A stretch of DNA of 64,000 bases from an uncultured delta proteobacterium (GCA_963727625.1 CAVSHR010000006.1:160001-224000); one strand, 5' to 3'. Counted from the stretch's first letter, positions 49,743 to 64,000 are shown. Made by a program: numbers and translations. The notes: a model not told the origin generated them from the letters alone.

Positions 49743-50810
49743 CTAGCTCTGCTCGGGAGTCGAATACTCCTCGGAATAAAGGTCGAGCAACGCCCGCAAC
49801 AGGGCGAACAGGGCCGGACCGAGGACGATGCCCACCGCACCGAAGAGCGAGATACCGCCGAGGATGCCGAAGAATAGAAACAACACCGGCAGGCCGAGGC
49901 GATTACCGATGAGCAGCGGTTTCAGAATATTGTCGATCATGCCGACGACGCCCAGGCACCAAACGAGCAGGAGGATGCCGTTCACGGTTTCGCCCTGAAC
50001 GAATAGGTAGATCGACGCCGGAATCGACACGATGGTCGACCCGCCCACGGGCAGCAGCGCCACAAAGCCCGTCAGCACGCCCCACAACACCGCAAAGGGA
50101 ACACCCAATAACCAGTAAGCCAGTCCGGCGAGCAAACCCTGGAGCATCGCCACCACCAGCGAACCATGAACCACGGCGACCACGGTATCGACGATATTTT
50201 TAAACAAACGGGTTTGGTGCTCATGCCCCATCGGCAGCAGCCGTTGCACGCGAGTTACGAAACCCGCGCCGTCGCGAAGAAAGAAAAAAAGCGTTACCAG
50301 GGCGATCACAAAGTTGACCGCGAAGAGCAAAACATTTTGCGCGATGCCCTTGACCTGCCCCACCAAAAACGACGATGAAGATTGCGCGCCTTGAATCAGC
50401 AGGTCCTTCCAGTTGATTTTAAAATCGACCAGCTGAAAAGTCATTCGGTCCCACCAGCTCAACAGCACTTGAACCCACGGTAGGGATTGCCACGGGGTGC
50501 CATTCTCGTTGTTCAAAAGCGAGCGCACCGACTGCACCAGCAAAACCGCCTCGTCGGATAAGAACCAAGCCAGCTGGATTCCCGGCGCAATGACCAACAC
50601 CGTGATCAGAACGATGACGATCAGCGCCGCCAGAGTCTCCCGTCCGCGCAGGCGCCCGAGTAGCCAGGCGTAGAGCGGGTATACCAGAATGGCGAGAATC
50701 AGCGCCCAGGTGATCGCCTTTAGGAACGGGCTGAGAATCAAAAACGCGCCGTAGAGTATGAGCAGCAGCAGCGCGAAGAAAAACCCGGTCACGAGCCAAG
50801 TTTGGTTCAC
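49743..50810 (-). CDS. AI-2E family transporter
   Basis: Multi-TM protein with FFFLRDG, DNILKP and GIVLGP; GTG start after RBS AAGGAG. Confidence 0.9.
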   Translation of the reverse strand: MNQTWLVTGFFFALLLLILYGAFLILSPFLKAITWALILAILVYPLYAWLLGRLRGRETLAALIVIVLITVLVIAPGIQLAWFLSDEAVLLVQSVRSLLNNENGTPWQSLPWVQVLLSWWDRMTFQLVDFKINWKDLLIQGAQSSSSFLVGQVKGIAQNVLLFAVNFVIALVTLFFFLRDGAGFVTRVQRLLPMGHEHQTRLFKNIVDTVVAVVHGSLVVAMLQGLLAGLAYWLLGVPFAVLWGVLTGFVALLPVGGSTIVSIPASIYLFVQGETVNGILLLVWCLGVVGMIDNILKPLLIGNRLGLPVLFLFFGILGGISLFGAVGIVLGPALFALLRALLDLYSEEYSTPEQS

Positions 50811-51033
50811 CGATTGAACTCCTTTTGCGGCTCGTTGAACTCTACGCACAAGGCTCGCGTCCTTCAAGCGCTGTACCACAGGCGGGCATTTCGGTCGCGA
50901 CGCAAGCTTGCTACAGGGTGTATCAAACCGACTACTACAAGGCCCAGCCAGCGGCACTGGCCGCTTCTGGCCTCGGTGGAAATTGTCATGCCAATTCAAC
51001 GGCTTACTTCAAAGGAAAAACTCAGTTAGCGCC

Positions 51034-51049
51034 TGGTACAACAGTTGCG
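51034..51049 (+). promoter_or_regulatory. Putative sigma54 (-24/-12) promoter upstream of the binding-protein array
   Basis: TGGTAC-AACAG-TTGC (GG-N10-GC). Confidence 0.45.
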
Positions 51050-51166
51050 CTATGACAGCTCCGACCGGGTATGCAGCGCCTAGCGGGCTACCAACGTTAC
51101 CCAAGATCAATCATTTCGGCTGGTGGATTTTTCCATGCAGTCCTGCCGGAAGGCTACGCAAATTTT

Positions 51167-52138
51167 ATGATGAACAAAGTTATTTTAGGCACGGCTCTAT
51201 TGTTGTTCAGTCTCACCTGTAGCGCCGCTGGACAGCCGGCGAAACCCTATCGGATCGGGGTTCTTCTTCCCGGCGGCCCTCAGTACGAAACCCTCGACGG
51301 ACTGCGCCAGGGCTTGAAAGAGCTAGGGCTCCGGGAAGGCAACCAGTACACTCTGGAGATCAGAGATGTCGAAGGAGATGCAACCGTCGCTCATGAAGGG
51401 GCCAGGGTCATGGAAAGAGCCAAAGTCAGTCTTATCTATGCGCTGACGACACCAGTCATTACGCAAGCCAAGGCGGCGACAGGTCACACTCCGATTGTCT
51501 TTTCGATCGGCAGCGATCCCGTCACCGGCGGGCTGGTCGAGAGTTTCGCCAAGCCAGGCGGCCGGCTCACCGGAGTCCATTATCTCGTCCGCGATCTCAC
51601 CGCCAAGCGCCTCGAAGTTTTGAAGGAGATCCTTCCCAAGATCGACCGAGTTCTTACCTATTACGATCCCGCCAATCGGGTTGCCGCCGAGGGCGCGACC
51701 CTGGCGCGCAACGAGGCGAAACGAATCGGCATCAAGCTCATCGAACGGCACGTTAGCTCCGTCGGCGAGCTGAAAAGCGAATTGCACAAGCTTAAGACCG
51801 GCGAAGCCGACGCCTTTTTCTTCACCGCGGACCTAATGGTGGGCAGTCAATCACAACTCATTATCGATAGCACCAAAGCAAAAAAGCTCCCGGCGATGTT
51901 TCAGGAGCGAACGCTAGTGGCCCAAGGCGCGCTCGCGAGCTACGGCCAGAACTACCGAGAGATCGGCCGGCTCTCGGCCAGGTACGTCCAGCAAGTTCTC
52001 ACCGGCACCCAGCCGAAGGATTTGAAAATCGAGACCGTCGACAGCGTCGAGCTGGCGATCAACTTGCAGACTGCCAGACAGCTCGGCATTACGATCCCGC
52101 CGCAAGTCCTGGCGCGCGCGCAGAAGGTGATCAAGTGA
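51167..52138 (+). CDS. ABC_sub_bind-type substrate-binding protein, array copy A
   Basis: RIGVL...GLKELG..EG, DPV.GGLVESFAKPGG.LTG and terminal IPPQVLARAQKVIK. Confidence 0.9.
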   Translation: MMNKVILGTALLLFSLTCSAAGQPAKPYRIGVLLPGGPQYETLDGLRQGLKELGLREGNQYTLEIRDVEGDATVAHEGARVMERAKVSLIYALTTPVITQAKAATGHTPIVFSIGSDPVTGGLVESFAKPGGRLTGVHYLVRDLTAKRLEVLKEILPKIDRVLTYYDPANRVAAEGATLARNEAKRIGIKLIERHVSSVGELKSELHKLKTGEADAFFFTADLMVGSQSQLIIDSTKAKKLPAMFQERTLVAQGALASYGQNYREIGRLSARYVQQVLTGTQPKDLKIETVDSVELAINLQTARQLGITIPPQVLARAQKVIK

Positions 52139-52140
52139 AG

Positions 52141-53143
52141 ATGGGCAACAGGCAACAGCGATAAAGCGAAATTCGTTGCTCTCGCGCTCTGCGCTACGCT
52201 CTTTGCGCTATTGGGATCTGCTGAGGCGCAGCAGCCGAAGAAAGTCGAACGCATAGGGTATCTGGTATCAGTTCGTGGTGGGCTCGCGTCGACCGAAGAC
52301 GCGCTGCGAGCCGGTCTGCGCGAGCTAGACTACATCGAAGGACAGAATTTTGTCGTCGAGTCGCGATCTGCCGAAGGGAAGGTCGAGCGGTTACCGGGGC
52401 TTGCAGAGGATTTGATACGCCTGAAAGTTGACGTCATCGTTGTCACAAGCGTGCAGGGCGCTCTGGCTGCCAAAAAGGCTACTCAATCCATCCCCATTGT
52501 CTTTGCCGTCGCTCAAGATCCCGCAGGAAGCGGTCTGGTTGCCAGCCTTGCGCACCCAGGTGGAAATGTTACCGGAGTGACGGACTTCGCCCGAGAGTTA
52601 GCCGACAAGCGGCTGGAACTACTCAAGGAGACCGTTCCCAAGATCTCACGCCTAGCGCTCCTTTTGTGGAAACCGGCCGGACCGGACTATATGGCCGAGA
52701 GAAATGATATCGAGATGGCCGCCACAACCTTGCGAATCAAGATTCGGCCGGTCGAAGTGGGAAGCGCCAACGAGCTGGAGAGCGCCTTCGTGCGCATGGC
52801 CCAGGAGGGCGCCGATGCTTTTATGGGGCTGACGGACACGAGATTCGCCACCAATCGAAAACGGATCATCGAGCTGGTTGTGAAGAACCGTCTGCCGGCA
52901 GTGTATCAGGACTGGGTGTTCGTTCAGACCGGCGGTCTGATGTCTTACGGGACAAACCGTGTTCAGTGGCGGCGGCGCATAGCGTGGTACGTCGACAAAA
53001 TCCTTAAAGGCACGAAGCCGGCTGATCTTCCGGTCGAACGACCAACGAAATTCGAATTCGTTGTAAATCTCAAAGCCGCCAAGCGGATCGGCCTGTCGAT
53101 CCCGCCCAACGTGCTGGTGCGAGCGGATAGGGTGATTCAATGA
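52141..53143 (+). CDS. ABC_sub_bind-type protein, copy B; signal peptide is out of frame with its ATG
   Basis: Body intact from 52211. The ATG at 52141 is shifted by a duplicated GGCAACA heptamer. Confidence 0.8.
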
Positions 53144-54144
53144 AAACAAGCCATAGCAAAAAAGCCAGCGTCATTGGCCTTACGCTTTTCGCCATGCTCT
53201 TTGCGCTTTGCCGTCCAGCCGAGGCGCAGCAAGCGGAGAAAGTCCCCCGGATTGGATACCTAAGCGGTAGCCCGCCTTCCGCTATCGCGGAACACAACGA
53301 GGCCTTCCGCCAAGGTCTGCGCGAGCTTGGATATATGGAGGGTAAAAATATTGTGATTGAGTGGCGATCTGCAGAGGGAAAACGTGACCGCCTACCGGCG
53401 CTTGCTACCGAGCTAGTGCACCTCAAGGTCGACGTCATCGTGACGGCTGGACCGTTAGTAACCCGTTCTGCCAAACAAGCAACTTCCACAATTCCGATTG
53501 TCATGGCGCAGGATCCCGATCCGGTCCGCAACGGGTTCGTTGCCAGCTTGGCACGGCCGGGCGGTAACATAACTGGACTTTCCAGAATTGCCCCGGAGCT
53601 AAGCGGAAAACAAATGGAGCTTTTGAAGGAGATCGTTCCCATGCTATCCCGCGTGGCCGTCTTCGGGACTTCAACCAGGCCGGGAAACGCACAAACGTTA
53701 AAAGAAGTGGAACTTGCTGCGGAGGGGTTCGGGGTGAAACTTCAATACCTAGACATCCTAAGTCCCAAAGATATTGTGACTGCATTCCGAGCCGCAGTTA
53801 AGGAACGGGCCGACGGCGCACTCTGGATCGTAACGGGCTCGATTGGGAATCCTCACCGAAAAAAGATTGCGGACCTCGCGGTGAGCAGCCGGCTCCCGGT
53901 GATATACTTTCAGCGAGTAGATGTGGAAGCCGGGGGGCTTATGTCCTACGGGGTGAACGTGGTCGACTTGCACCGCCGCGCCGCGGTGTACGTGCACAAG
54001 ATCCTGAAGGGCGCCAAGCCGGCTGATTTACCCGTTGAGCAGCCCACAAGGTTTGAGTTCGTAGTCAATCTCAAGACCGCGAACCAGATCGGCGTGACGA
54101 TTCCGCAGAACGTGCTGATGCGGGCGGATCGAGTTATTAGGTGA
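53140..54144 (+). CDS. ABC_sub_bind-type protein, copy C
   Basis: Family motifs; ATGA overlap with copy B. Confidence 0.92.
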   Translation: MKTSHSKKASVIGLTLFAMLFALCRPAEAQQAEKVPRIGYLSGSPPSAIAEHNEAFRQGLRELGYMEGKNIVIEWRSAEGKRDRLPALATELVHLKVDVIVTAGPLVTRSAKQATSTIPIVMAQDPDPVRNGFVASLARPGGNITGLSRIAPELSGKQMELLKEIVPMLSRVAVFGTSTRPGNAQTLKEVELAAEGFGVKLQYLDILSPKDIVTAFRAAVKERADGALWIVTGSIGNPHRKKIADLAVSSRLPVIYFQRVDVEAGGLMSYGVNVVDLHRRAAVYVHKILKGAKPADLPVEQPTRFEFVVNLKTANQIGVTIPQNVLMRADRVIR

Positions 54145-54193
54145 AGAAGTTCGACCCGGAAACCAAATCGGGAGGCGGTTTGCCTATCTGGCG

Positions 54194-54544
54194 CTACCCG
54201 ACAAACCCATCTACGGGAATTAATCGCTTGGCGACAGGATCGACGCCGAGAAATAGGCTCTCAAGCGCTACGGCGCCGAGCAGCGGCGGACCGTCGGGCG
54301 CGATAAAACACGGAGTCGTGATCTCAGTGCCGTTCAGCGACAAACGTGCTTCGGCTACCGGCCAGACGTCTCGCTGTCCGCCGGCGATCACAACGCGTTG
54401 CGAGCGAGTGGATTTCAGCTCAAGCCTTTCCGCCAGGGACCGTGGCACTACGCTAAGAGTCGCACCGGTGTCCACCAAAAGCTCGACTTCTTCGCCACGC
54501 CCCGTGGGGCCAGTCAGATGCCCTTTTACGTGGAACAATCCCAT
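54194..54544 (-). CDS. Clan AA (retropepsin-like) aspartyl protease
   Basis: LLVDTGAT and LLGAVALE motifs. Confidence 0.85.
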   Translation of the reverse strand: MGLFHVKGHLTGPTGRGEEVELLVDTGATLSVVPRSLAERLELKSTRSQRVVIAGGQRDVWPVAEARLSLNGTEITTPCFIAPDGPPLLGAVALESLFLGVDPVAKRLIPVDGFVG

Positions 54545-54628
54545 ATCAAAGGTCTTCCGAAAAACATGGTCATTGTAGCGCAGCTAGACAACAAAGCAAC
54601 AAAACTGGTTAGTCTATACAGGTTTGCC

Positions 54629-54755
54629 AACCCACAGATCTCCCGTCGAGCATCCGACCAAGTTCGAATCCGTGATCAATCTTAAAACCGCCCAGCAGAT
54701 CGGCATGACGATCGCGCCGAACGTCCTGGCGCGGGCGGATCGGGTCATAAGATGA
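54629..54755 (+). repeat. Orphan 3'-end copy of the binding-protein gene (tail repeat)
   Basis: Encodes ...[36 protein letters not shown] with no gene body upstream. Confidence 0.9.
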
Positions 54756-54846
54756 CAGCACTGAGTTACGAGTGCTGAGGACTGAGGTGGTGATCTGTAA
54801 AGACCGGCACTCATGGCTCAGCACGCAGCACGTTTAGGGAGGAGAG

Positions 54847-55812
54847 ATGAGAAATAGTCTATTGCTTCTATTGGTCATAGTGGCCCTGGCCGTTGTCACC
54901 GCGGCTCAGGCGCAACAACCAGGGCGGATGCCGCGGATAGGTTATTTAAACATCGGGTCCAAAGTCGAGCGGCCATCTGAAGCATTCCTCCAAGGGCTGC
55001 GCGATCTCGGCTATGTCGAGGGAAAGAACATCATCATCGAGTACCGAGGGGATCCCCAAAGAAGGGAAGATCGACTGCCGGAGTTGGCGGCGGATCTGGT
55101 CCGTCTCAAAGTAGCCGTTATCGTTGCCCTGAGCCCACCGGCGGCGCGCGCCGCAAAGAACGCCACTCAGACAATCCCCATCGTCATTAGGACCACGGGA
55201 GACCCGGTTCGGGCAGGATTTGTTCAAAGTCTTGCTCGGCCGGGCGGAAATATCACGGGCGTTACCTCCATCTCATCGGAGTTATATGGCAAGCGGTTGG
55301 GGCTGCTCAAAGAGGTGATCCCGGGACTTTCCCGCGTGGGCGTTTTGCACAATCCGGACCGCAGCAACTTCAAGAAAATGCAGAGTGCGGCCAGGCCGCT
55401 AGCGTTGGAGCTTCGATCCTTAGAGGTCCGAACTTCGAATGATTTTGCCCCTGCGTTCACAACCGCAACCCGAGCCCACGCTCAAGCGCTCATCACCATA
55501 AGGACTCCACTTTTGAATAATCACCGAAAACAGATTGCCGAGTTGGCGATAAAGAGGCGGCTGCCGTCGATTTACGATGAAGTGCAATATGTCGATGTTG
55601 GCGGCCTGATGTCTTATGGGACGCACTTGGGTGACCTGCACCGGCGCGCCGCGGTTTTCGTCGACAAGATCCTCAAAGGAACTAAGCCGGCCGACATCCC
55701 AGTGGAGCAGCCAACGAAATTCGAGTTCGTGATCAATCTTAAAACCGCCAAGCAGATCGGTCTGACGATCCCGCCGAATGTGCTGGCGCGGGCGGACAGA
55801 GTAATTAGGTAA
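54847..55812 (+). CDS. ABC_sub_bind-type protein, copy D
   Basis: Signal peptide, family motifs and RBS GGAGG. Confidence 0.92.
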   Translation: MRNSLLLLLVIVALAVVTAAQAQQPGRMPRIGYLNIGSKVERPSEAFLQGLRDLGYVEGKNIIIEYRGDPQRREDRLPELAADLVRLKVAVIVALSPPAARAAKNATQTIPIVIRTTGDPVRAGFVQSLARPGGNITGVTSISSELYGKRLGLLKEVIPGLSRVGVLHNPDRSNFKKMQSAARPLALELRSLEVRTSNDFAPAFTTATRAHAQALITIRTPLLNNHRKQIAELAIKRRLPSIYDEVQYVDVGGLMSYGTHLGDLHRRAAVFVDKILKGTKPADIPVEQPTKFEFVINLKTAKQIGLTIPPNVLARADRVIR

Positions 55813-55859
55813 GTCCTGATCGGCGGACCGGTAATTTTCAAGAAAAGGAGGTGCAAGGC

Positions 55860-56834
55860 ATGATCACAAGGTCTCTCACCGTCCTGTTCGCTTGTGCGAT
55901 TCTGTTGTTTCACGAACCCAGCCAAGCGCAACAGCCGAAGCGAATCTGGCAGATCGGTTTGTTCCATGTGGGGTTGGACCATGTTCCGCCGTCATTTCCC
56001 GCGCTAAGGGAAGCAATCAAAGAACTGGGCTACGAAGAGGGAAAAAACAGCCATTTGGACTGGCGCAACCTGCCCGACGATGCGGCGGCCCTTGCTACCG
56101 CCCAAGAATTTACCCGCCAACCGGTCGATTTGATCGTGGCCTTTGAGGACCAGACGATTCGCGCTGCCAAGGCAGCCACCTCTGAAGTGCCAGTTTTATT
56201 CCTGCACGCGAATGCTCCTGTGAAGGATGGGTTTGTGAAAAGTTTTGCCCACCCTGGCGGTAATATGACCGGCTTCGTCACATGGCCCGTGTCCTATGGC
56301 AAGCGTGTCGAATTGTTCAAAGAGTTGATTCCTGATCTCCGCAGTCTGCTCCTGATCGCTCATCCGGACGATCCCGTCGGGCATCGCTGGCTGCAAGAAA
56401 TGCGCAGCGCCGGCGCCGCGCTGAAGCTTCGTTTGATCGAGCGCGAAGTCAGCAATCAAGCGGAAATCGAACGGGTGATGCGGTCCGTAAGGCGAGATGA
56501 AGTCGGCGGAGTCTTGGTAGCGTCTCTGATTCTCCGCAACAGTTACAGTTCGCTGATCGTCGATATTGCCTCGGAGCGGCGTCTACCCTTGGGGATGCAT
56601 CGCAAAGAATGGGTCGAGCGGGGCGCGTTGTTTTCCTATGCGGCGGACCTCGCCTCCGTCGGCCGGGCCGCCGCCCCCTATGTCGACAGGATTCTCAAAG
56701 GTACCAAGCCGGCGGATCTGCCGGTCGATCAGGTATCGCGATTCGAGCTGGTGATCAATCTGAAATCAGCCCAGAAACTTGGCCTGACGATTCCCCAATC
56801 GGTTCTGTTTCGCGCAACCAAGGTGATCAAATGA
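55860..56834 (+). CDS. ABC_sub_bind-type protein, copy E (divergent subfamily)
   Basis: IGLFHVGLDHVPPS variant; RBS AAGGAGG. Confidence 0.9.
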   Translation: MITRSLTVLFACAILLFHEPSQAQQPKRIWQIGLFHVGLDHVPPSFPALREAIKELGYEEGKNSHLDWRNLPDDAAALATAQEFTRQPVDLIVAFEDQTIRAAKAATSEVPVLFLHANAPVKDGFVKSFAHPGGNMTGFVTWPVSYGKRVELFKELIPDLRSLLLIAHPDDPVGHRWLQEMRSAGAALKLRLIEREVSNQAEIERVMRSVRRDEVGGVLVASLILRNSYSSLIVDIASERRLPLGMHRKEWVERGALFSYAADLASVGRAAAPYVDRILKGTKPADLPVDQVSRFELVINLKSAQKLGLTIPQSVLFRATKVIK

Positions 56835-56931
56835 TCGAGCCGAAGTCGCAAGTCGCGGAGGGCGAAACACGGCCCCTAGGAAACCTCGCAAGCGATAGCC
56901 CAATTAATTAAATCCTTCAAGGAGGTGGGTT

Positions 56932-57523
56932 ATGACGCGCAACAAAATGATTTTGTCCGTGCTGCTGGCGGCCATCGTCCACGCGGGCGGAGCATGGGCA
57001 CAACAATAGTTCACCATCAAGAATCTTGTCGAGAAAAAGGTGTAAGAGTCACCGGCAGGGTCGCTTTACTGGCGGATCGAGAACTTTGCCGGCCTCGCCG
57101 AGGCGCAGGCCGCCGCCGGTCCTACGGCACTGGCAGCTCCATCGATGGGCAAGGTTTGGCTCTTTACGCTCGGCGGCACCGGTGGATCAACACCGGGAGG
57201 CATCAAGGTCCTGAGGTCGGACCCATTCCCCTGTTCGTTGCGCCGGACTATCTCCTGCGTATCAACGAGGCGAGCGGCCCTCCTGGCAGCGTAACGTCCC
57301 AGCACACTCATCCGGGCTTCGAGACCTTCTACGTGCTCGCTGGGGAGCAAACCATTCGTACGCCTCAAGGCGTGCTCCGTGTTCGGGCTGGCCAACCCGC
57401 GACCGACCGTGACGCAGACAATCCGATGCGTTCTCGAGCAGCGGCTCGACAGATCTTCACTCCTTGGCGATGTTCGTGGTAGATGCCACCAGGCCTTTTT
57501 CATATCCGGCCACGCTGCCCTAG
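56932..57523 (+). pseudogene. Exported cupin-domain protein pseudogene
   Basis: MTRNKMIL...AWAQQ*FTIKNLVEKKV*ESPAGSLYWRIENF... then HTHPGFETFYVLAGE: two in-frame stops and two frameshifts. Confidence 0.8.
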
Positions 57524-57544
57524 GCTGGCTGCGGTCCCGCATAC

Positions 57545-57594
57545 TCTCGATTCCTCCGAACGTGCTGGCGCGGGCGGATCGGGTGATCAAATGA
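57545..57594 (+). repeat. Orphan tail repeat
   Basis: CGATTCCTCCGAACGTGCTGGCGCGGGCGGATCGGGTGATCAAATGA ([14 protein letters not shown]). Confidence 0.9.
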
Positions 57595-57787
57595 CCTACG
57601 GGAATGCTCGGATCGAACTTTGTTCTCCATCAACTAAGTGTCGCATGAAGCCAAACTGAAGCGTAGTTCAGTTCAATCGGACGTTGAATGAGCATCTTCC
57701 CCCGAAGCACCGGTTCCCTTTCCACTATAATTCTTATTATTCTCAGCTTCCGTCTTTATCTTACATACGCTCGCGAACGAGGTGGAT

Positions 57788-58771
57788 ATGAAAAGACTTG
57801 GTTCACTATCAATCCTGGTTGCAGTGAGTTTGCTTACTGTTGCGATTCCGGCCGAGGCGCAGCAGGCAGTTCAACCGGCGCGTATCTGTTGGCTTTCCGC
57901 CGGTGGGGGCGGTGATCATTTGGCTCTCAATGCATTCCGCGACGGCATGCGTGACCTAGGGTACGTTGAAGGCCGCAATCTAGTGATCGATGCACGTTGG
58001 GGCGATGGATCTAAAAAGCTCCTCGACCAGTACGCGGTCGAGCTAGTACGCTCAAGCCCCCGGGTGCTCGTGACGCAAGCAGGACAGGCGATCTTTGCCG
58101 TACGTCGGACAAAGCCGACGATCCCGATCGTGTTCGGGCTCAGCGGCGATCCGGTGGAAGCTGGATTAGTCGACAGCTTCGCGCATCCCGGCGGTAATTT
58201 TACCGGCGTGTCTTTTCTTTCCCTTGACCTTGTCGGCAAGCGCATGGTGCTGCTGAAGGAAACCATTGTCTCGCTCAAGCGCGTCGCCGTGCTCGCTAAT
58301 CCGAGTCATCCAGGCGAGAAAAGCGAGCAGAGCGCAACCCGCGCTGCGGCAAAAGCGCTCGGTCTCGATTTTGAGTATTTTCCGGCACGGCCAGGACAGG
58401 ATTACGACCGCGTCCTTCCCGCCGTCGCCAAATCTCGTAGCCAAGCGTTATTTGTTTTTCCCGATGCTGGAGTAATCGGAAACAGTGAAAAGATCGCCGC
58501 CTTCTCAGTGAAGAATCGCATCCCGGCGATGTCCGGTTGGGCCGAATTTGCCGAGCGAGGAAATCTTATGACCTACGGTCCAATTTTGAATGAAGGTTAC
58601 CGGCGGCTGGCAACGTACGTCGATAAAATTCTTAAGAGAGCCAAGCCGATGGATCTGCCGGTCGAGCTGCCGAAGAAGTTCGAGCTAGTGATCAATCTGA
58701 AAACCGCCAAGCAGATCGGCCTGACGATTCCGCCGAACGTGCTGGCAAGGGCAGACAGGGTCATTCGATGA
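57788..58771 (+). CDS. ABC_sub_bind-type protein, copy F
   Basis: Signal peptide and family motifs. Confidence 0.92.
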   Translation: MKRLGSLSILVAVSLLTVAIPAEAQQAVQPARICWLSAGGGGDHLALNAFRDGMRDLGYVEGRNLVIDARWGDGSKKLLDQYAVELVRSSPRVLVTQAGQAIFAVRRTKPTIPIVFGLSGDPVEAGLVDSFAHPGGNFTGVSFLSLDLVGKRMVLLKETIVSLKRVAVLANPSHPGEKSEQSATRAAAKALGLDFEYFPARPGQDYDRVLPAVAKSRSQALFVFPDAGVIGNSEKIAAFSVKNRIPAMSGWAEFAERGNLMTYGPILNEGYRRLATYVDKILKRAKPMDLPVELPKKFELVINLKTAKQIGLTIPPNVLARADRVIR

Positions 58772-58797
58772 ATGGTCAGGCGAAAAGCTTGAGTTTC

Positions 58798-59262
58798 TCA
58801 GCTCTGAAGAAAATCGCACAGGACCAGTATTTCGATGGCGTTAACTTTCTTCACGCGCTTATCGTTGGTCAAAAACAGAGTGGCCTCCTGTTGAATGGCC
58901 GCAGCGATTTGCAGGGCATCGGGCAGCCGGAGCGTGTAGCGCGCCCGAATGAGCGCCGCGGCTTCAGCCAGTTTCTCGTCGATTGTTACGACGGAGAGCG
59001 AAGCGAAAGACTTCAGGCTGAATTTGATTTCATCGGCCAGAGAAAAGTTCTTATCGGCAAACGGTTTTGCGAGGATCTCGGCCAGTGTCACGGCCGAGGT
59101 GACGGCACGCAGAGCATGATTCTCCAAAAGACTAAATACCGGATCGAGAAGATCGGCATACGGAGTAACTTCCTCGATATAATAAATGAAGGGCGCGGTA
59201 TCGAGACCAACGACCTTGTGCTTTTCGATGACCCGTCGCAGTCTATGCGCGTTGCCATTCAT
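58798..59262 (-). CDS. vapC: PIN-domain (VapC-like) toxin
   Basis: LDTAPFIY, TLAE, LPDALQIA and TND acidic PIN residues. Confidence 0.9.
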   Translation of the reverse strand: MNGNAHRLRRVIEKHKVVGLDTAPFIYYIEEVTPYADLLDPVFSLLENHALRAVTSAVTLAEILAKPFADKNFSLADEIKFSLKSFASLSVVTIDEKLAEAAALIRARYTLRLPDALQIAAAIQQEATLFLTNDKRVKKVNAIEILVLCDFLQS

Positions 59263-59488
59263 CCCGCAGCTTCTCTAGATAGGCATCAATCTTGGCGCGA
59301 CTGCCCCAGGTGCCTTTGCCGAGACCGCGCAGACGCCCGGCAGAACTTTTCGGTTTAGGCCGGAGGATAATTTTGTTGCCCTCAACGACAGCGGCCAACT
59401 GGTCGCCGGGCTTTAAGTCCAAGCTCTTGCGGATCTCTTTGGAAATGACGATTTGCGACTTTTGATTAAGAGTTAGCACCGATTCCAT
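59243..59488 (-). CDS. AbrB/MazE/SpoVT-type antitoxin
   Basis: KSQIVISKEIRKSLDLKPGD...IILRP; overlaps the toxin start. Confidence 0.9.
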   Translation of the reverse strand: MESVLTLNQKSQIVISKEIRKSLDLKPGDQLAAVVEGNKIILRPKPKSSAGRLRGLGKGTWGSRAKIDAYLEKLRDEWQRA

Positions 59489-59497
59489 AATTATACT

Positions 59498-59547
59498 CCA
59501 AATGATCGATTTGGGATAAATTTATCAGACTTGGGTTACTGAATCAA
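59498..59547 (-). promoter_or_regulatory. TA promoter/operator
   Basis: TTGATT-17 bp-TAAATT with palindromes GATAAATTTATC and CCAAATGATCGATTTGG. Confidence 0.5.
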
Positions 59548-59554
59548 CTGACAC

Positions 59555-59624
59555 AACCGCGAAACAAATCGGCCTGACGATCCCGCCGAATGTGTTGGCG
59601 CGGGCGGACCGGGTCATCAGATGA
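59555..59624 (+). repeat. Orphan tail repeat
   Basis: Encodes [22 protein letters not shown] with no gene body. Confidence 0.9.
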
Positions 59625-59704
59625 CACTGCTGAGGACTGAGTTGAAAATCAGGAAAAACTCAGTACTCATGGCCCAGCACTCAGGACTTCCGTGGGGCGG
59701 AGCG

Positions 59705-60685
59705 ATGAAAAATATTTATTGTTTTCTTTTAATCGTCGCGTACTTGGGCGGCGGTGCAATCGCCGAGGCGGAGCAGCCGAAGAAGGTCTCTCGGATAGGG
59801 TATCTATCGGCGCTCTCACAACCCGCTGACTCTTACCGCAGCGAGGCATTCCGCCGAGGGCTGCGCGAGCTCGGCTATGTCGAGAAAAAAAACGTCACCA
59901 TCGAATACCGATATGCGAAAGGTAAGGTCAATGTCCTCTCCGAGCTTGCGGCCGAGCTTGTTCGTCTCAAAGTAGACATCATTGTTACGCAGAGCACGCT
60001 CGATGCCTATGCTGCCAGGCAATCGACAAGCGCAATTCCCATCGTCATGATCGCCAGCGACGATCCGGTGGGCACCGGGCTCGTCGCCAGCCTGGCGCGG
60101 CCTGGTGGTAACATCACCGGGCTGACATCTCTTTCCCGGGAGCTAAGCGGTAAGCGGCTGGAGCTGCTCAAGGAGGCGGTACGCGGACTCGCGCGCGTGG
60201 CGGTCCTCTGGAATGCGGCTAACCCAGACAAGGCCCGCGATGTCGAAGCGACGCAGGTCCAGGCAAGAACGTTAGGTCTAGAGCTTCAATCCCTAGAGGT
60301 GCGGGGTCCCGATGATTTTGACGGCGCATTCCAAACCGCCACCAGAAAGCGTGCTGGCGCGCTCCTCATGTTAGCAGACCCCTTGACCATTACTTATCAA
60401 TCACGGATCGTAAACCTGGCGACAAAAAGCCGGCTGCCGTCGATGCATGAGCAGAGGGAGTTTGTGGATGCTGGAGGCCTGATGGCCTATGGGCCCAGCC
60501 TTCTCGGTCTGTTCCGGCACGTCGCTACCTATGTGGACAAGATTCTCAAAGGCGCCAAGCCTGCCGACCTCCCTGTGGAGCAGCCGACGCAGTTTGAGCT
60601 GGTCATCAACCTGAAGACCGCTAAGAACATCGGCCTTACCCTCCCGCCTGAACTGCTTGCCCGGGCAAACAAAGTTATTAAATGA
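59705..60685 (+). CDS. ABC_sub_bind-type protein, copy G
   Basis: Family motifs; an alternative in-frame ATG at 59621 overlaps the orphan-tail stop. Confidence 0.92.
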   Translation: MKNIYCFLLIVAYLGGGAIAEAEQPKKVSRIGYLSALSQPADSYRSEAFRRGLRELGYVEKKNVTIEYRYAKGKVNVLSELAAELVRLKVDIIVTQSTLDAYAARQSTSAIPIVMIASDDPVGTGLVASLARPGGNITGLTSLSRELSGKRLELLKEAVRGLARVAVLWNAANPDKARDVEATQVQARTLGLELQSLEVRGPDDFDGAFQTATRKRAGALLMLADPLTITYQSRIVNLATKSRLPSMHEQREFVDAGGLMAYGPSLLGLFRHVATYVDKILKGAKPADLPVEQPTQFELVINLKTAKNIGLTLPPELLARANKVIK

Positions 60686-60795
60686 TAGCGCGCCTTGCAT
60701 GTGGAATCTTTTGCCTCTCGAAGAGAAGGATCTTTCAGCACTCGGCCAGATAAATGCGCCATGGACAACCTGGGCTCCTAAGAAGGGATAGAACG

Positions 60796-61338
60796 ATGAA
60801 GAGAAAAAAGCCTCTCATGGCAATCTTTCTAGGCGGCCTGCTTCTCCTGCTATCGACGCCGCTTCTTGCGGTGAACGTCGGGGATAAGGCACCGGACTTT
60901 GAACTTCCCAGCACGAGAGGAGGAAAACTCAAGCTGAGCAGCCTTCGGGGGAGAAATGTGCTGATTAACTTTTACCTCACTGATTACAGCCCCACGTGAA
61001 CCAAGCATATTCTCTCGTCCGGTGCGGACAATTACGCAAAGTTCAAGGCAGAGAATACCGAGGTTTTGGGCATAAGCGCCAATGCGCCCTTTTCTCAAAA
61101 GGCCTTCGCGGAGTTTCTGAAATTGAATTATCCCCTTCTCAGTGATTCTCAGGACCAAAAGGTCATGAAGTCCTACGGCGTATTCGACAAAGCGAGCGGC
61201 GGTGTCAAGCGTTCGTATTTTCTTATCGACAAGAAGGGCATTGTCCGTTTCAAGAGCGTCAGGCCCAGCGCCCTGGAACAAGACCTTCTCTCCACCGACG
61301 AGCTACTGAAAGAGGTCAAGAAAATCAACAAAGGTTAG
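60796..61338 (+). CDS. Exported AhpC/TSA (peroxiredoxin-like) redoxin, probable selenoprotein (TGA at 60997-60999)
   Basis: Track ORFs 60754..60999 and 61066..61338 share a frame: [11 protein letters not shown]...[13 protein letters not shown]...VLGISAN...YPLLSD...[11 protein letters not shown]. Confidence 0.85.
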
Positions 61339-61340
61339 GG

Positions 61341-61448
61341 AAGCAGCCGACCAAATTCGAGCGGGTAATTAATATCAAGGCCGCCAAGCAGATCGGTCTG
61401 ACGATCCCGCCGAATGTGCTGGCGCGGGCGGACAAAGTGATTCGATAG
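61341..61448 (+). repeat. Orphan tail repeat
   Basis: Encodes [34 protein letters not shown]; begins 2 bp after the redoxin stop. Confidence 0.9.
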
Positions 61449-61488
61449 CATTTTCGGCTTTGGATTTTCGATTTGAGGGAAACGAACG

Positions 61489-62538
61489 ATGAATGTAGTT
61501 TCTTTGAAGAGAATTTCCGAGCCTTACTCCGACAATCTAAAATCGGCAATCCAAAATCCAAAATGGTGGGGAATCTTTGCATTCTCGCTCGCATTGGTCT
61601 TCGGTGGGTTTGAGGCACGGGCGCAGGAGCAACGCAAAATCCCCCGGATCGGCTATTTGTCCAACACCGATCCAGATCGAGATTCCGCCCGTGCCACGGC
61701 CTTTAAGCTTGCACTGCGCGACCTGGGGTACATCGAAGGAAAAAGCGTCGCCATCGAGTACCGAGACGCTAGGGGCGGGCGCGATCGGCAACGGAAATAC
61801 GCTGCCGAGCTGGCGAGTTTGCCCGTCAATTTAATCTTTGCAACGTCAACAACAATGGCCCTGGCTGCCAAAAGTTTCACCAAAGCGATTCCAATCATCT
61901 TTCTTAGTGCCACAGAGCCTGTGACATCGGGACTCGTAAAGAGCCTGGCACGCCCCAGCGGAAATCTTACAGGGTTTGCCACGATCGCAGCGGCATTAGC
62001 TGGCAAACGCTTGGAGTTGCTCAAGGAGACCCTTCCCAACCTTACGCGACTCGCCATCTTGTGGCAGCCGCAAAATAAAGGATCTGAAGAATCGTGGAAG
62101 GAAAGCCAACTGGCGGCTCGACAGCTCGGCTTGAAGATCCATTCCATGGAGGTCAGCAGCCCTGACAAGTTCGAGAGCGCTTTCGGTCTTGCGAGCAAGG
62201 CGAACAGCGATGCGCTAGCCGTGACGTTGAGTAGTTTATTCAGTTTAAATCGAAAATTGATTGTTTCCCTAGCAGCCAAACATCGGCTACCCGCGATCTA
62301 CACGCGCGATGAATTCGCCGATAGGGGTGGTTTGATGTCCTATGGTGCAGATGAAGGTGAGCCATTCAAGCGCATCGGCGTGATGATCGACAAGATTCTG
62401 AAAGGCGCGAAGCCTGCCGACCTACCAGTAGAGCAGCCGACGAAGTTCGAGTTGGTCATCAATTTAAGAACGGCCAAACAGATCGGCCTCACTATCCCGC
62501 CCAACGTGCTGGAAAGGGCGGATCGGGTGATCAGATGA
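61489..62538 (+). CDS. ABC_sub_bind-type protein, copy H
   Basis: Family motifs; the N-terminus includes AATCCAA heptamer-derived NLKSAIQNPK. Confidence 0.9.
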   Translation: MNVVSLKRISEPYSDNLKSAIQNPKWWGIFAFSLALVFGGFEARAQEQRKIPRIGYLSNTDPDRDSARATAFKLALRDLGYIEGKSVAIEYRDARGGRDRQRKYAAELASLPVNLIFATSTTMALAAKSFTKAIPIIFLSATEPVTSGLVKSLARPSGNLTGFATIAAALAGKRLELLKETLPNLTRLAILWQPQNKGSEESWKESQLAARQLGLKIHSMEVSSPDKFESAFGLASKANSDALAVTLSSLFSLNRKLIVSLAAKHRLPAIYTRDEFADRGGLMSYGADEGEPFKRIGVMIDKILKGAKPADLPVEQPTKFELVINLRTAKQIGLTIPPNVLERADRVIR

Positions 62539-62631
62539 CAGGACTGAGGGCTGAGCAATGAGTGCGAGTCTCCGGGCCTCTCCAACTCAGTACTCAGTCT
62601 TCGCTGGTCAGTCCTTTGCTGAAGAGGAGCG

Positions 62632-63612
62632 ATGAAAACCATTCCATGCCTAATCCTAATCATCGGGTTGATGGGCGGTGGCGCAATCGCCCAGGCGCAG
62701 CAGCCAAAGAAAATCCCGCGGATAGGATTCCTCTATAGCGTTACCTCTTCCTCGGTGGCGGCCCGCGCCGAGGCATTCCGGCAAGGTCTGCGCGAGCTTG
62801 GCTACATTGAAGGGAAGAACATTGTTATTGAGTGGCGATTTGCAGAGGGAAAACTAGATCGCCTCCCCGCGCTTGTGTCGGAGCTGGTGCGTCTTAAGGT
62901 AGACGTGATCGTCACGAGTGGCTCGTCACCAACCCGCTCTGCCAGGAAAGCAACTGTTTCGATTCCCATTGTGATGGCGCGCGAAACCGATCCTGTTGGG
63001 AATGGATTCGTCGCCAGCTTGGCGCGGCCTGGCGGGAACATCACTGGATTGTCAATTCTCGCCCCGGAGATAAGCGGGAAACAGGTGGGGCTTTTGAAGG
63101 AGATTGTTCCCAGGCTCTCACGCGTGGCCGTCCTCGGGACTTCGACCACTCTAGGTTGGGCACACTCGTTAAACGAGATGGAGATCGCTGCGGGGGCATT
63201 GGGAGTGAAGCTTCAGTACCTAGATGTGCTAAATGTCAAAGACATTGTGACTGTATTCCGAGCCGCAATTGAGGAGCGTGCTGACGCAGTCCTCGTGCTA
63301 GGGAGCCCAATTTACGCTTCTCATCGAAATCAGATTGCGGGCATCGCGGTAAAAAGCCGGCTTCCGACGATATACCGCAATTCACAATATGTGGAAGCCG
63401 GGGGACTTATGTCCTACGGGGTGAACCTGCCCGACTTGGACCGGCGCGCCGCTATTTATGTGGACAAAATTCTGAAAGGCAGGAAACCCGCAGACCTTCC
63501 CGTAGAGCAACCGGTCAAGTTCGAGTTTGTCATCAACCTGAAAACAGCAAAGCAAATCGGACTCACGATTCCGCCCAATGTACTTGCGCGGGCGAATAAA
63601 GTAATAAGGTGA
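62632..63612 (+). CDS. ABC_sub_bind-type protein, copy I
   Basis: Signal peptide and family motifs. Confidence 0.92.
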   Translation: MKTIPCLILIIGLMGGGAIAQAQQPKKIPRIGFLYSVTSSSVAARAEAFRQGLRELGYIEGKNIVIEWRFAEGKLDRLPALVSELVRLKVDVIVTSGSSPTRSARKATVSIPIVMARETDPVGNGFVASLARPGGNITGLSILAPEISGKQVGLLKEIVPRLSRVAVLGTSTTLGWAHSLNEMEIAAGALGVKLQYLDVLNVKDIVTVFRAAIEERADAVLVLGSPIYASHRNQIAGIAVKSRLPTIYRNSQYVEAGGLMSYGVNLPDLDRRAAIYVDKILKGRKPADLPVEQPVKFEFVINLKTAKQIGLTIPPNVLARANKVIR

Positions 63613-64000
63613 ATACACCGCCCATGAGCCACTGGACCGCAAAGCTTCGGCAAATGCCTTTCTTAAGAATCTTTGGAGCGCCGCGCCGAGGGCGGTTAGT
63701 GCGCGACTACTTTCTGATCTCGGTCATCTTAATTGGCGGCGGGCTGATCACCAGCGGCCTCGTCGAAATCTATTTTCGCTATCACGAAAGCCGCGATCAG
63801 TTGGGCCGCTTGCAGAAAGAGATCGCCGCCGGCGCCGCCTTCAAGATCGAGAGCTTCGTTCAGGAGATTCACAATACCCTCAAGGGCGCGACTAAAAGCC
63901 GCGACATCGCGCCCAAGGGACTCACTCCGGACTTTCGCTTCGAGCTCGAAAAACTTTTGCTGATCGCGCCGGCAGTGACCGAAGCCGTAGCGCTCAATGA
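63609..64000 (+). CDS. N-terminus of a membrane sensor protein (TM plus probable Cache domain; kinase or cyclase), truncated by the window end
   Basis: Open frame from the GTG overlapping the copy I stop: ...RGRLVRDYFLISVILIGGGLITSGLVEIYFRYHE...AAFKIESFVQEI...LLLIAPAVTEA. Confidence 0.65.
   Translation, partial: MNTPPMSHWTAKLRQMPFLRIFGAPRRGRLVRDYFLISVILIGGGLITSGLVEIYFRYHESRDQLGRLQKEIAAGAAFKIESFVQEIHNTLKGATKSRDIAPKGLTPDFRFELEKLLLIAPAVTEAVALN

Follow-up and report, generated by a model that had tools for sequence, protein, structure and literature searches.

A tandem array of binding-protein genes and orphan gene ends

In the window, a 64,000-nucleotide stretch from an uncultured delta proteobacterium (GCA_963727625.1, CAVSHR010000006.1:160001-224000), orphan PF04392 substrate-binding-protein genes of a soil bacterium form a tandem array that evolves fast (Table 1). 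An AI-2E family transporter gene forms the left border of the array and served as the anchor for finding orthologous loci; its orthologues in same-genus genomes share 68-77% amino acid identity. All nine binding-protein genes of the window exceeded the curated PF04392 cut-off in a genome scan, and F4, for example, matched positions 19-292 of the 293-position profile (E 6e-47). A 126-nt profile built from 227 gene tails (nhmmer) located 13 tails in the window, all on the plus strand between 52019 and 63612 and spaced 611-1177 nt end to end. Nine of these terminate full-length PF04392 ORFs and four are orphans, the same counts, and much the same 0.6-1.2-kb spacing, as were given in a preliminary description of this DNA. 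A 26-nt core pattern allowing up to three mismatches had eight matches in the window against an expectation of none (100 shuffles, largest count 0), and a repeat search recovered families of 12 x 52 nt and 11 x 90 nt.

Table 1 Features of the array and its left border (positions in the window)
Feature	Position	Strand	Evidence or remark
AI-2E family transporter gene	49743-50999	-	Pfam PF01594, E 1.9e-53
F1, full PF04392 substrate-binding gene	51071-52138	+	Divergent tail
F2, full PF04392 gene	52211-53143	+	Family profile match
F3, full PF04392 gene, followed by cargo 1	53140-54144	+	Family profile match
Cargo 1, small retropepsin-like aspartyl protease (Asp_protease_2)	54194-54544	-	PF13650, E 8e-13
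O1, orphan tail, ~123 nt	54633-54755	+	Profile (nhmmer) positions 3-126; HMM positions 291-327
F4, full PF04392 gene	54847-55812	+	Tail has the 26-nt core with 0 mismatches
F5, full PF04392 gene, followed by cargo 2	55851-56834	+	Subfamily with its own tail type
Cargo 2, ORF with partial Cupin_2 match	56925-57482	+	E 1.4e-4; 21.9 bits, below the 27.2-bit cut-off
O2, orphan tail, ~51 nt, canonical type	57544-57594	+	Profile (nhmmer) positions 76-126
F6, full PF04392 gene, followed by cargo 3	57782-58771	+	Family profile match
Cargo 3, predicted type II toxin-antitoxin pair	58798-59488	-	PIN, 58798-59262; MazE/AbrB-type antitoxin, 59243-59488
O3, orphan tail, ~72 nt	59553-59624	+	Profile (nhmmer) positions 55-126
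F7, full PF04392 gene, followed by cargo 4	59621-60685	+	Family profile match
Cargo 4, exported AhpC/TSA peroxiredoxin	60754-61338	+	PF00578 matches both halves; read-through translation
O4, orphan tail, ~105 nt, ends TAG	61342-61446	+	Profile (nhmmer) positions 20-124
F8, full PF04392 gene	61489-62538	+	Family profile match
F9, full PF04392 gene, last array member in window	62632-63612	+	Family profile match

Every orphan in the window is preceded by non-family DNA that itself lies directly 3' of a full gene. The four unrelated cargo modules, two on each strand, are thus each enclosed between a full gene and an orphan tail, as had been described. The repeated tails are real; however, the ~47-bp core originally proposed as the unit of repetition does not describe the orphans, which are not uniform in length (Table 1). 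They are 3' gene fragments readable as the last 16-39 codons. O1, the longest, reads in frame as the last 39 codons and lacks the gene start codon, the stop codon of O3 overlaps the ATG of F7, and the junction of O4 with cargo 4 is identical in locus L056 of another genome.

Homologous cassettes of the protease gene, with 77-78% nucleotide identity, are found in genome G018 (L014, 4134-4558) and on metagenome contig L159 (173-527). The cargo 2 ORF covers only positions 6-43 of the 70-position Cupin_2 profile and is probably degraded. Cargo 3 comprises two ORFs overlapping by 20 nt, with PIN (PF01850, E 5.6e-15) and MazE_antitoxin (PF04014, E 1.7e-9) domains; as adjacent small genes with toxin and DNA-binding antitoxin domains, they are predicted to form a type II toxin-antitoxin pair. 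At its peroxidatic position the peroxiredoxin gene has an in-frame TGA (60997-60999). The L056 and L123 homologues share this codon and the genome has a tRNA-Sec, suggesting that cargo 4 probably encodes a selenoprotein.

Recurrence and turnover of tail-bounded units

The association of orphan tails with cargo is a general feature of Candidatus Binatia and neighbouring lineages. The layout recurred with independent cargo: PIN pairs in G018, G012, G005 and L046, mazEF on a second contig of the genome under study (G000, contig C2), the protease in L159, and cupin, monooxygenase, hydrolase and transporter genes elsewhere. Taking gaps of 350 nt or more as cargo gaps, we found orphans in 20 of 54 cargo-bearing gaps versus 21 of 306 tight gaps across genome loci and a metagenome set (combined odds ratio 8.0). 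The association held in the genome loci (15/40 versus 15/166, odds ratio 6.0) and in the independent metagenome set (5/14 versus 6/140, odds ratio 12.4); because the loci are not independent, p-values overstate its significance. The earlier view that the tail is special and enriched after non-family genes is therefore borne out, C-terminal fragments being far over-represented and tied to cargo.

Comparison of orthologous AI-2E loci revealed extensive differences in unit content. The arrays beside the transporter gene contain from 1 to 17 or more units, varying by species, and order is not conserved past the first gene. Of the array members, F1 alone has positional orthologues, which head the arrays of G018, G017, G006 and G005 (64-79% amino acid identity); F6 has orthologues on metagenome contigs (60-75%). 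The unit comprising F7, the peroxiredoxin gene and O4 is common to two other genomes: F7 is 81% identical in amino acids and 87.6% in nucleotides to L056 2995-3975, and L123 matches with 86.9% nucleotide identity over 1615 nt. Different genes follow this unit in G000 and L056, F8 being no orthologue of L056_6318 (45% amino acid identity), and the neighbours of the protease cassette in G000 and G018 are likewise non-orthologous. The cargo cassettes, with 72-87% nucleotide identity between genomes, look old and largely vertically kept.

Gene ends as proposed anchors for capture

The last ~150 nt is the only block of the gene that stays nucleotide-similar between paralogues: mean pairwise identity among random paralogues was 0.66-0.79 in this block versus 0.41-0.67 upstream, and tails are 73-80% identical between paralogues. 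We tentatively favour, while stopping short of calling it probable, the explanation that units are captured duplicatively and reshuffled through homology anchored in this conserved 3' block, with orphans as the scars. The tail block would serve as portable homology for the general recombination machinery of the cell. Tail-bearing DNA, whether a popped-out unit, a neighbouring unit or DNA arriving from a related array, would recombine with a resident tail, and a single-crossover or 'ends-in' event would leave the upstream gene intact with captured DNA behind it. The same event would generate a 5'-truncated, 3'-complete tail joined to the native spacer and next gene, and this route may also account for the gain, loss and exchange of whole binding-protein units. 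Orphans would then be both scars and re-usable substrates of homology-guided capture, decaying once made, with no dedicated integrase. A circle may have entered by single crossover, or the joining may have been illegitimate and facilitated by homology; we infer dependence on RecA-type recombination and not on a dedicated enzyme.

Transformation experiments using high-identity anchors have revealed two related processes, homology-facilitated illegitimate recombination and Campbell-type single-crossover integration. The array resembles both in its short shared anchor and irregular second junction. Unlike in those experiments, the anchors here are ~75-80% identical overall, with a better-matching 26-47-nt core. 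No excision circle, empty site or recent event was seen, the only public runs consisting of short contigs whose joints are unreliable.

Some 3' ends are shared between unrelated paralogues. A ~140-nt 3' mini-cassette is present on nine genes scattered across the family tree (nine changes needed on a 225-gene tree; shuffles, 8-9). The bodies of its carriers are 52% identical in amino acids, with four-fold-site identity of 0.37, and extra similarity starts only ~50 nt before the stop codon. In L082, which provides a single clear case of recent tail exchange, two genes with 52% identical bodies have 93.5% identical tails. Divergent bodies seldom have near-identical tails (3 of 1079 within-genome pairs and 11 of 21275 between-genome pairs), so homologous exchange between tails cannot be frequent. 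Furthermore, 34 of 54 cargo gaps (63%) are orphan-free, indicating that the tail route is not the sole means of cargo entry or that scars have been lost.

Orphan breakpoints and decay

Orphans are always 3'-complete and 5'-truncated, with the truncation almost always in the last ~150 nt. Of the C-terminal fragments, 37 of 44 in the first set begin at HMM position 279 or later and 7 of 12 in the metagenome set at 277 or later; pooled, 44 of 56 begin within the final ~50 positions of the 327, about 20 times more per position than random end-points would give, in a census whose detection bias favours the tail and in which short heads could not be scored. Twenty N-terminal fragments (15 and 5 in the two sets) are evenly spread, and there are four middle fragments. 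Random pseudogene debris, expected in proportion to length across the gene, was rejected on this distribution. The 5' ends of orphans scatter over ~90 nt (profile positions 3-92), with a shared junction only within one module family; variable 5' ends within the conserved block and a constant 3' end would arise from a short anchor combined with an irregular other junction.

Ordinary decay offers a different origin for the orphans, as remains of full genes deleted or overwritten on the arrival of foreign DNA, with tails over-represented only because the C-terminus, as the best conserved part of the gene, would be the easiest to detect. Decay evidently occurs in these arrays: two genes are internally deleted, retaining head and tail (O5 on C2, and one in L029), several orphans (O8, O9, L014:14931, L049, L077 and L159:625) have stops, indels or many substitutions, and the isolated orphans on contig C4 sit amid an IS and broken genes. 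Longer 3' fragments (7 and 5 in the two sets) exist alongside the N-terminal ones, and among first-set fragments of at least 35 amino acids tails (~17) outnumber heads (15) only slightly. Nevertheless, random end-points predict a gene-wide spread rather than the observed concentration, and fragments of 35-67 amino acids include ~10 tails versus 3 heads. Wherever cargo was read, in the window (four cases) or elsewhere, the intact gene's stop codon adjoins the cargo on its left, with no head remnant. Ordinary decay also leaves the 3' module on unrelated paralogues unexplained, and we consider it unlikely as a general account of the orphans.

The relationship of each orphan to the gene before it bears on both readings. 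Orphan and preceding tail are 0.58-0.83 identical, the preceding tail ranking 4-21 among 22 tails, although the age of the events could mask an original identity; O2, for instance, is 0.62 identical to the tail of F5 (rank 21 of 22). The orphans are thus not the twin of the preceding gene's tail that the displaced-tail interpretation in the preliminary description implied, and such dissimilarity is expected under ordinary decay if the orphan derives from a different, lost gene. F5 and C2-F15 retain subfamily-specific tails, so any crossover in homology-guided capture must have been at their extreme 3' ends.

A possible constraint on the tail sequence

Third-position identity of tails is 0.54 within and 0.53 between genomes, compared with 0.39 upstream, and tail codons 313-322 favour NNG. 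This equality within and between genomes gives no sign of pervasive within-genome homogenisation and points to a nucleotide-level constraint outside the capture model. One candidate is that the canonical tail core functions at the nucleotide level, as an operator, a signal for RNA processing or stability, or some other cis signal that acts on the following gene or the end of the transcript, and that selection retains it ahead of the downstream gene when the array is rearranged. Consistent with this idea, 15 of 20 gaps with cargo and orphan show the normal spacing between the orphan and the binding-protein gene after it (26-188 nt from orphan end to gene in 10 of 15 at genome loci and 5 of 5 in the metagenome set), a placement that also favours homology-guided capture, the recoded-tail module restores a canonical short non-coding core downstream of its stop codon, and orphans are on average about as near the family consensus as coding tails, in a set that also includes edge-cut genes.

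However, the tail had no Rfam match, RNA fold z-scores ranged from -1.51 to +0.30, and RNAalifold predicted zero pairs in 120 tails. The sole candidate stem, of 5 bp, was paired in 76% and had only pair-breaking variation, with no compensatory change, and no promoter consensus was recognisable in the core by eye. Solitary genes and the last genes of arrays bear the same canonical tail, the genes downstream of the 34 orphan-free cargo gaps do without one, and two C4 orphans have no binding-protein gene downstream. Moreover, orthologous orphans decay: that of the protease cassette is intact in the window, decayed in L159 and near-unrecognisable in G018. Selection for such an element is a distinctly unlikely reason for the persistence of orphans.

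Comparison with integrons and other systems

In integrons and CALIN, short co-oriented units are each closed by a related repeat, attC. This imperfect palindrome forms a single-strand hairpin and has conserved outer cores. In an integron IntI adjoins the array, and a CALIN has at least two structure-recognised attC and no integrase; their cassettes often encode toxin-antitoxin pairs or small stand-alone enzymes, and unit content differs between related genomes. The array is similar in its co-oriented repeat-ended units, its cargo and the large unit differences between related genomes. The preliminary description proposed integron-like cassettes; its interpretation is partly supported overall, but the integron analogy itself is not supported. 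Under such a dedicated site-specific system, the tail would be an attachment site, units would move as circles and the recombinase would be encoded elsewhere. The cargo types, the conservation of tail synonymous sites beyond protein need, the canonical non-coding short tails kept behind genes with a recoded tail, and two consecutive cargo units in G005 (an unpublished genome; L020), each with a tail at its end, are in keeping with it, and the genome encodes one true integron integrase (TIGR02249 above cut-off).

That integrase lies on a contig other than those of the arrays (C4:370957-371898), and tblastx of five G000 cargo regions against its 40-kb neighbourhood returned no match. As previously noted, the window contains no tyrosine or serine recombinase; none was found within ~130 kb of either array (contigs C6 and C2), the nearest PF00589 matches being at C6 356166 and C2 478002. 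DNA folds of four tails on both strands revealed no attC-like hairpin (z-scores -1.44 to +0.40). The varying 5' ends of orphans are at odds with a fixed crossover, most cargo gaps are tail-less, orphans decay in sister lineages and the cassettes are old. An assignment to integrons or CALIN was rejected for the missing IntI adjacency, hairpin and single site per cassette, and a site-specific system is the least probable of these alternatives. Also unlike integrons, the repeat here comes from the coding 3' end of a single gene family, there is no attI, most units are paralogues of one gene with their own spacers, and the repeat occurs on 37% of non-family cargo. An integrative element with attL and attR was rejected, as there is no identical flanking core and the four window cargo units carry no integrase or directionality factor.

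The array has parallels in other systems as well. Genomic islands and prophages integrate at the 3' ends of tRNA, tmRNA or protein genes, restoring the gene and displacing the old end; the array shares the sequence of intact gene, foreign DNA and 5'-truncated, 3'-complete copy joined to native downstream DNA. It differs in that its cargo is 0.5-1.5 kb without an integrase, each genome has many tandem targets, the two flanking copies resemble each other no more closely than any pair of family tails, and the displaced copy is ~35-125 nt. Neisseria pilE/pilS, Borrelia vls and Anaplasma msp2 are cassettes with conserved flanks that undergo segmental gene conversion. Unlike those surface antigens, the array proteins bind solutes in the periplasm of a soil bacterium, the array has no expression-site/silent-copy design, its full genes are ~50% identical and exchange is rare. 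In common with them, it combines tandem paralogues with conserved ends and a variable middle, truncated beside full copies, and exchange of 3' segments.

Orphan gene ends follow unrelated cargo in a substrate-binding gene array

The genome assembly comprises 6.6 Mb in 15 contigs, with the window at 160001–224000 of contig C6, and its relatives carry the labels Candidatus Binatia or 'delta proteobacterium' soil MAGs. Nine full, co-oriented PF04392 substrate-binding genes (F1–F9) extend from the AI-2E transporter gene to the end of the window. A 126-nt nucleotide profile of the gene end gave 13 matches in 52019–63612, nine at the ends of full genes and four in orphan tails, confirming the count in the preliminary description; matches to a 26-nt core were far beyond chance (8 at up to 3 mismatches versus 0 expected). 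The tail had been described as a uniform 47-bp unit, which we correct here: the orphans are 51–123-nt 3′ fragments of the gene. Each does lie, as previously noticed, behind unrelated cargo in either orientation that follows an intact gene, the non-family DNA beginning 27–90 nt past the stop codon. Read-through or fusion of orphans to their neighbours was rejected, because the orphans have no gene start codon and a short tail behind a gene on contig C2 is out of frame.

Positions of array features and related elements (window positions unless a contig is named)
Feature	Position	Strand	Remark
rRNA operon, complete	951–6461	-	16S, tRNA-Ile, tRNA-Ala, 23S, 5S
AI-2E transporter gene	49743–50999	-	left edge of array
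Orphan tail O1	54633–54755		126-nt profile
Orphan tail O2	57544–57594		126-nt profile
Orphan tail O3	59553–59624		126-nt profile
Orphan tail O4	61342–61446		126-nt profile
Cargo 1		-	retropepsin-like protease
Cargo 2		+	degraded cupin ORF
Cargo 3		-	PIN/AbrB-MazE pair
Cargo 4	60754–61338	+	exported peroxiredoxin, in-frame TGA at catalytic position
Heptamer spacers	52139–52210, 54756–54846, 59625–59700, 61447–61488, 62539–62631
Gene-head conserved blocks	52220–52263, 53218–53261, 59762–59805, 62689–62732
Second binding-protein array (L103)	C2:163567–172426
Copy of ~140-nt 3′ module	~C2:168040–168178
Heptamer spacer	C2:168091–168130
Orphan N-terminal 'head'	C2:172139–172426		in C2 array
Isolated orphan tail	C4:195096–195218	-	far from any binding-protein gene
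Isolated orphan tail	C4:1302134–1302233	-	far from any binding-protein gene
Integron integrase	C4:370957–371898	-	TIGR02249

The fourth cargo gene encodes an AhpC/TSA peroxiredoxin whose in-frame TGA (60997–60999) occupies the peroxidatic position and is kept in the homologues at two other loci, L056 and L123. A tRNA-Sec is encoded in the genome, and cargo 4 is probably a selenocysteine peroxiredoxin. The unit formed by F7, the peroxiredoxin, O4 and the spacer is 84–87% identical across the three loci, and the paralogue that comes next in L056 differs from that in the window. At L056 3978–5515 an IS4-like element, accompanied by a short AT-rich target duplication, has inserted at the F7 orthologue's stop codon, and in the related genome G018 an IS5/IS1182-like element (L014 6672–8141) splits a binding-protein gene exactly ahead of the 45-nt core; both are ordinary insertions of IS elements into tails.

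Genome-wide, the profile identified 29 tails, 9 of them orphan; the window accounts for 4 of these and a second array on contig C2 for 3, and the other 2 are isolated on contig C4. The C2 array also contains two genes split by frameshifts, which may be long-read assembly errors, one gene with an in-frame TAG, an NMT1-like binding-protein gene, and an antiparallel mazEF pair sandwiched by a full gene and an orphan. Of the two isolated C4 orphans, one is interrupted by an internal stop, with an IS1182-like transposase gene ~550 nt away; the other lacks 3 nt, and its neighbours are a BNR-like gene with a frameshift and a truncated globin fragment.

Orphan tails are enriched behind cargo in genomes and metagenomes

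At AI-2E-orthologue loci of same-genus genomes, binding-protein genes number from 1 (G008) to at least 17 (G012), and only the first gene, F1, is conserved in position. Cargo followed by an orphan recurred with PIN pairs in G018, G012, locus L046 and the unpublished genome G005 (locus L020), and with the protease in L159. Elsewhere, cupin, luciferase-like monooxygenase, alpha/beta hydrolase, MFS/TLC transporter and DUF6036 nucleotidyltransferase genes precede orphans; toxin–antitoxin cargo is mostly antiparallel to the array.

Gene fragments were counted by chaining HMM matches across six-frame translations. In a first set (this genome, the loci of six relatives and 79 genome-contig loci), 408 chains included 275 full genes and 44 C-terminal, 15 N-terminal and 4 middle fragments, a count that includes three overlapping loci and some frameshift-rich assemblies; 37 of the 44 C-terminal fragments began at or beyond position 279 of the 327 in the HMM. 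In 80 metagenome contigs, analysed as an independent set, 214 genes were full, and C-terminal fragments numbered 12 (7 beginning at or beyond position 277) and N-terminal fragments 5. We then defined a gap as running from a full gene to the next family member, and a cargo gap as one of at least 350 nt. Orphans occupied 15/40 cargo gaps versus 15/166 tight gaps in genome loci, and 5/14 versus 6/140 in metagenome contigs. The suspected enrichment of orphan tails behind non-family cargo thus held in both sets, with a combined odds ratio of 8.0, for which p-values overstate the significance because the loci are related. The distance from orphan end to next gene was 26–188 nt, an ordinary spacer distance, in 15 of the 20 gaps with both cargo and orphan. 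The pattern of cargo and orphan tail is real and general.

Orphan 5′ ends almost always fell within the last ~150 nt of the gene, where random paralogues have a mean pairwise nucleotide identity of 0.66–0.79, compared with 0.41–0.67 upstream, and they coincide with this block of raised identity. The protease cassette is 77–78% identical in three genomes; its orphan looks intact in the window, is decayed with stops in L159 and in G018 is a barely alignable relic without the core. Four other genomes have homologues of the mazEF cassette (72–75% identical) after binding-protein genes, without a detectable orphan. The best-supported mechanism, which we advance tentatively, is duplicative capture and reshuffling guided by homology in the conserved 3′ block, the orphans being decaying scars. 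That the orphans are instead plain deletion remnants is unlikely; one C2 orphan is an internally deleted gene, because a signal-peptide fragment precedes it.

Gene ends are constrained at the nucleotide level

Third-position identity over the last 35 codons was 0.54 within genomes and 0.53 between them, compared with 0.39, both within and between genomes, over the preceding 45 codons; codons 313–322 favour NNG. Pervasive within-genome concerted evolution of tails was rejected (0.541 versus 0.528, with 20 of 200 label shuffles giving as large a difference), and near-identical tails on divergent bodies, such as an L082 gene pair with tails 93.5% and bodies 52% identical, were rare. The equal identity within and between genomes and the rarity of tail sharing therefore indicate a constraint common to all genomes, not within-genome homogenisation. 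The mean closeness of true orphans to the consensus was nearly that of coding tails, a comparison limited to named true orphans and made with caution because the automatic set of 100 'orphans' also takes in tails from genes truncated at the edge of a locus. The tail could be a functional nucleotide element, a reading that fits this constraint and that we consider improbable. An RNA element was rejected: an Rfam scan of 50000–64000 at E up to 1 gave no match, folding of either strand as RNA or DNA was not significant (z-scores −1.5 to +0.4), and RNAalifold predicted no structure for 120 tails.

About a dozen genes of different genomes end in a common ~140-nt 3′ module, consisting of AT-rich, synonymously recoded last 17 codons, the stop, a heptamer-repeat spacer and a canonical non-coding 45-nt tail. 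The bodies of ten module genes are just 52% identical, with a 4-fold-site identity of 0.37, and the extra similarity of the carriers sets in only ~50 nt ahead of the stop. With tail columns excluded from a 225-gene tree, nine carriers require nine changes, a number equalled by shuffled labels. From this dispersal and the divergence of the bodies it follows that the module either moved between paralogues or was kept by selection with many losses. The proposal that tail-bounded units are exchangeable is therefore upheld in part: the module sits on unrelated paralogues and shared cassettes have different neighbours, those of the protease cassette being non-orthologous between this genome and G018, and the L082 pair points to exchange of tails, but features of integrons or att sites are not found.

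Tails lack the features of integron and att sites

The preliminary description had interpreted the array as integron-like. The tails do not show what defines integrons or classical att-site elements: neither tyrosine nor serine recombinases occur near the C6 or C2 array, the tails do not fold, orphan starts are not fixed (they spread over profile positions 3–92), a tail is missing from 34 of the 54 cargo gaps, and orphans decay. An attC-like DNA hairpin was excluded by the fold z-scores, the RNAalifold result and the sole plausible 5-bp stem, in which variation is only pair-breaking. Orphans are not closest to the tail of the preceding gene, on which ground a target-site-type duplication of that tail was rejected. 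A single true integron integrase is encoded in the genome, on C4 (467.8 bits versus a cut-off of 265), and after it come small ORFs and tandem repeats of 9 nt (GTTCAANNC; L101 6000–15000); this locus could represent a chromosomal integron whose sites are unusual. A link between it and array cargo was rejected, as tblastx of five cargo regions of this genome against the 40 kb around intI gave no match.

Public sequencing runs, possibly including the sample of origin, contributed only small shares (0.13, 0.08, 0.05, 0.02 and 0.00), as contigs. Their contigs matched 51000–64000 in 150–700-nt pieces, some spanning the F7/cargo 4, cargo 1/O1 and O4/F8 junctions with 0–2 differences; the sides of the joints (20–48 letters at 90% likeness) were indistinguishable from paralogues and uninformative on circles or empty sites. 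F6 orthologues from metagenomes were likewise uninformative on empty sites, because the closest are 60–75% identical in amino acids and too distant in nucleotide sequence. The least probable of the readings is a dedicated site-specific system of Binatia and neighbouring soil lineages, in which the last ~45–125 nt of the PF04392 gene would serve an unrecognised cassette exchange as its attachment site, with tail-bounded binding-protein genes and small cargo (toxin–antitoxin pairs, redox enzymes) the mobile units, and the recombinase encoded away from the arrays; if true, selection for unit mobility would explain both the cross-genome synonymous conservation of the tail and the canonical non-coding tails retained behind recoded gene ends.

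Arrays as possible sites of gene capture

The orphan-tail arrays are akin to two known kinds of arrangement, gene-end integration and the cassette array. The titles and abstract openings returned by a full-text literature search contained no description of these tails or arrays, and to our knowledge little is known of transposase- and integrase-free movement of small chromosomal toxin–antitoxin modules and stand-alone genes. The window locus and dozens of similar loci in uncultured soil bacteria share a repeatable footprint (intact gene, cargo, truncated gene end) that links cargo capture to the 3′ block conserved within an expanded gene family. Should general recombination at 3′ blocks be responsible, large paralogue arrays would be natural landing pads in which foreign genes are trapped and shuffled; were a dedicated enzyme at work, this would be an integron-like system whose attachment site is protein-coding. 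Under either cause, the arrays account for the fast turnover of Binatia solute-binding repertoires. The synonymous-site conservation of the tail presents a concrete, testable puzzle.

At many loci, the spacers behind the binding-protein genes consist of 2–5 degenerate heptamers in tandem, of several types (ACTGAGG, GCGTGAG, GGTCAGA, GATTTTN/AATCCAA and GGCAACA), which vary between orthologous units, are barely registered by Tandem Repeats Finder and resemble cyanobacterial STRR repeats. Gene-head codons around the signal-peptide cleavage site (Ala-Gln-Gln...) form a direct-repeat family with reduced synonymous diversity at positions 24–26; they make up another block of nucleotide conservation besides the tail, where the mature protein has its 5′ end.
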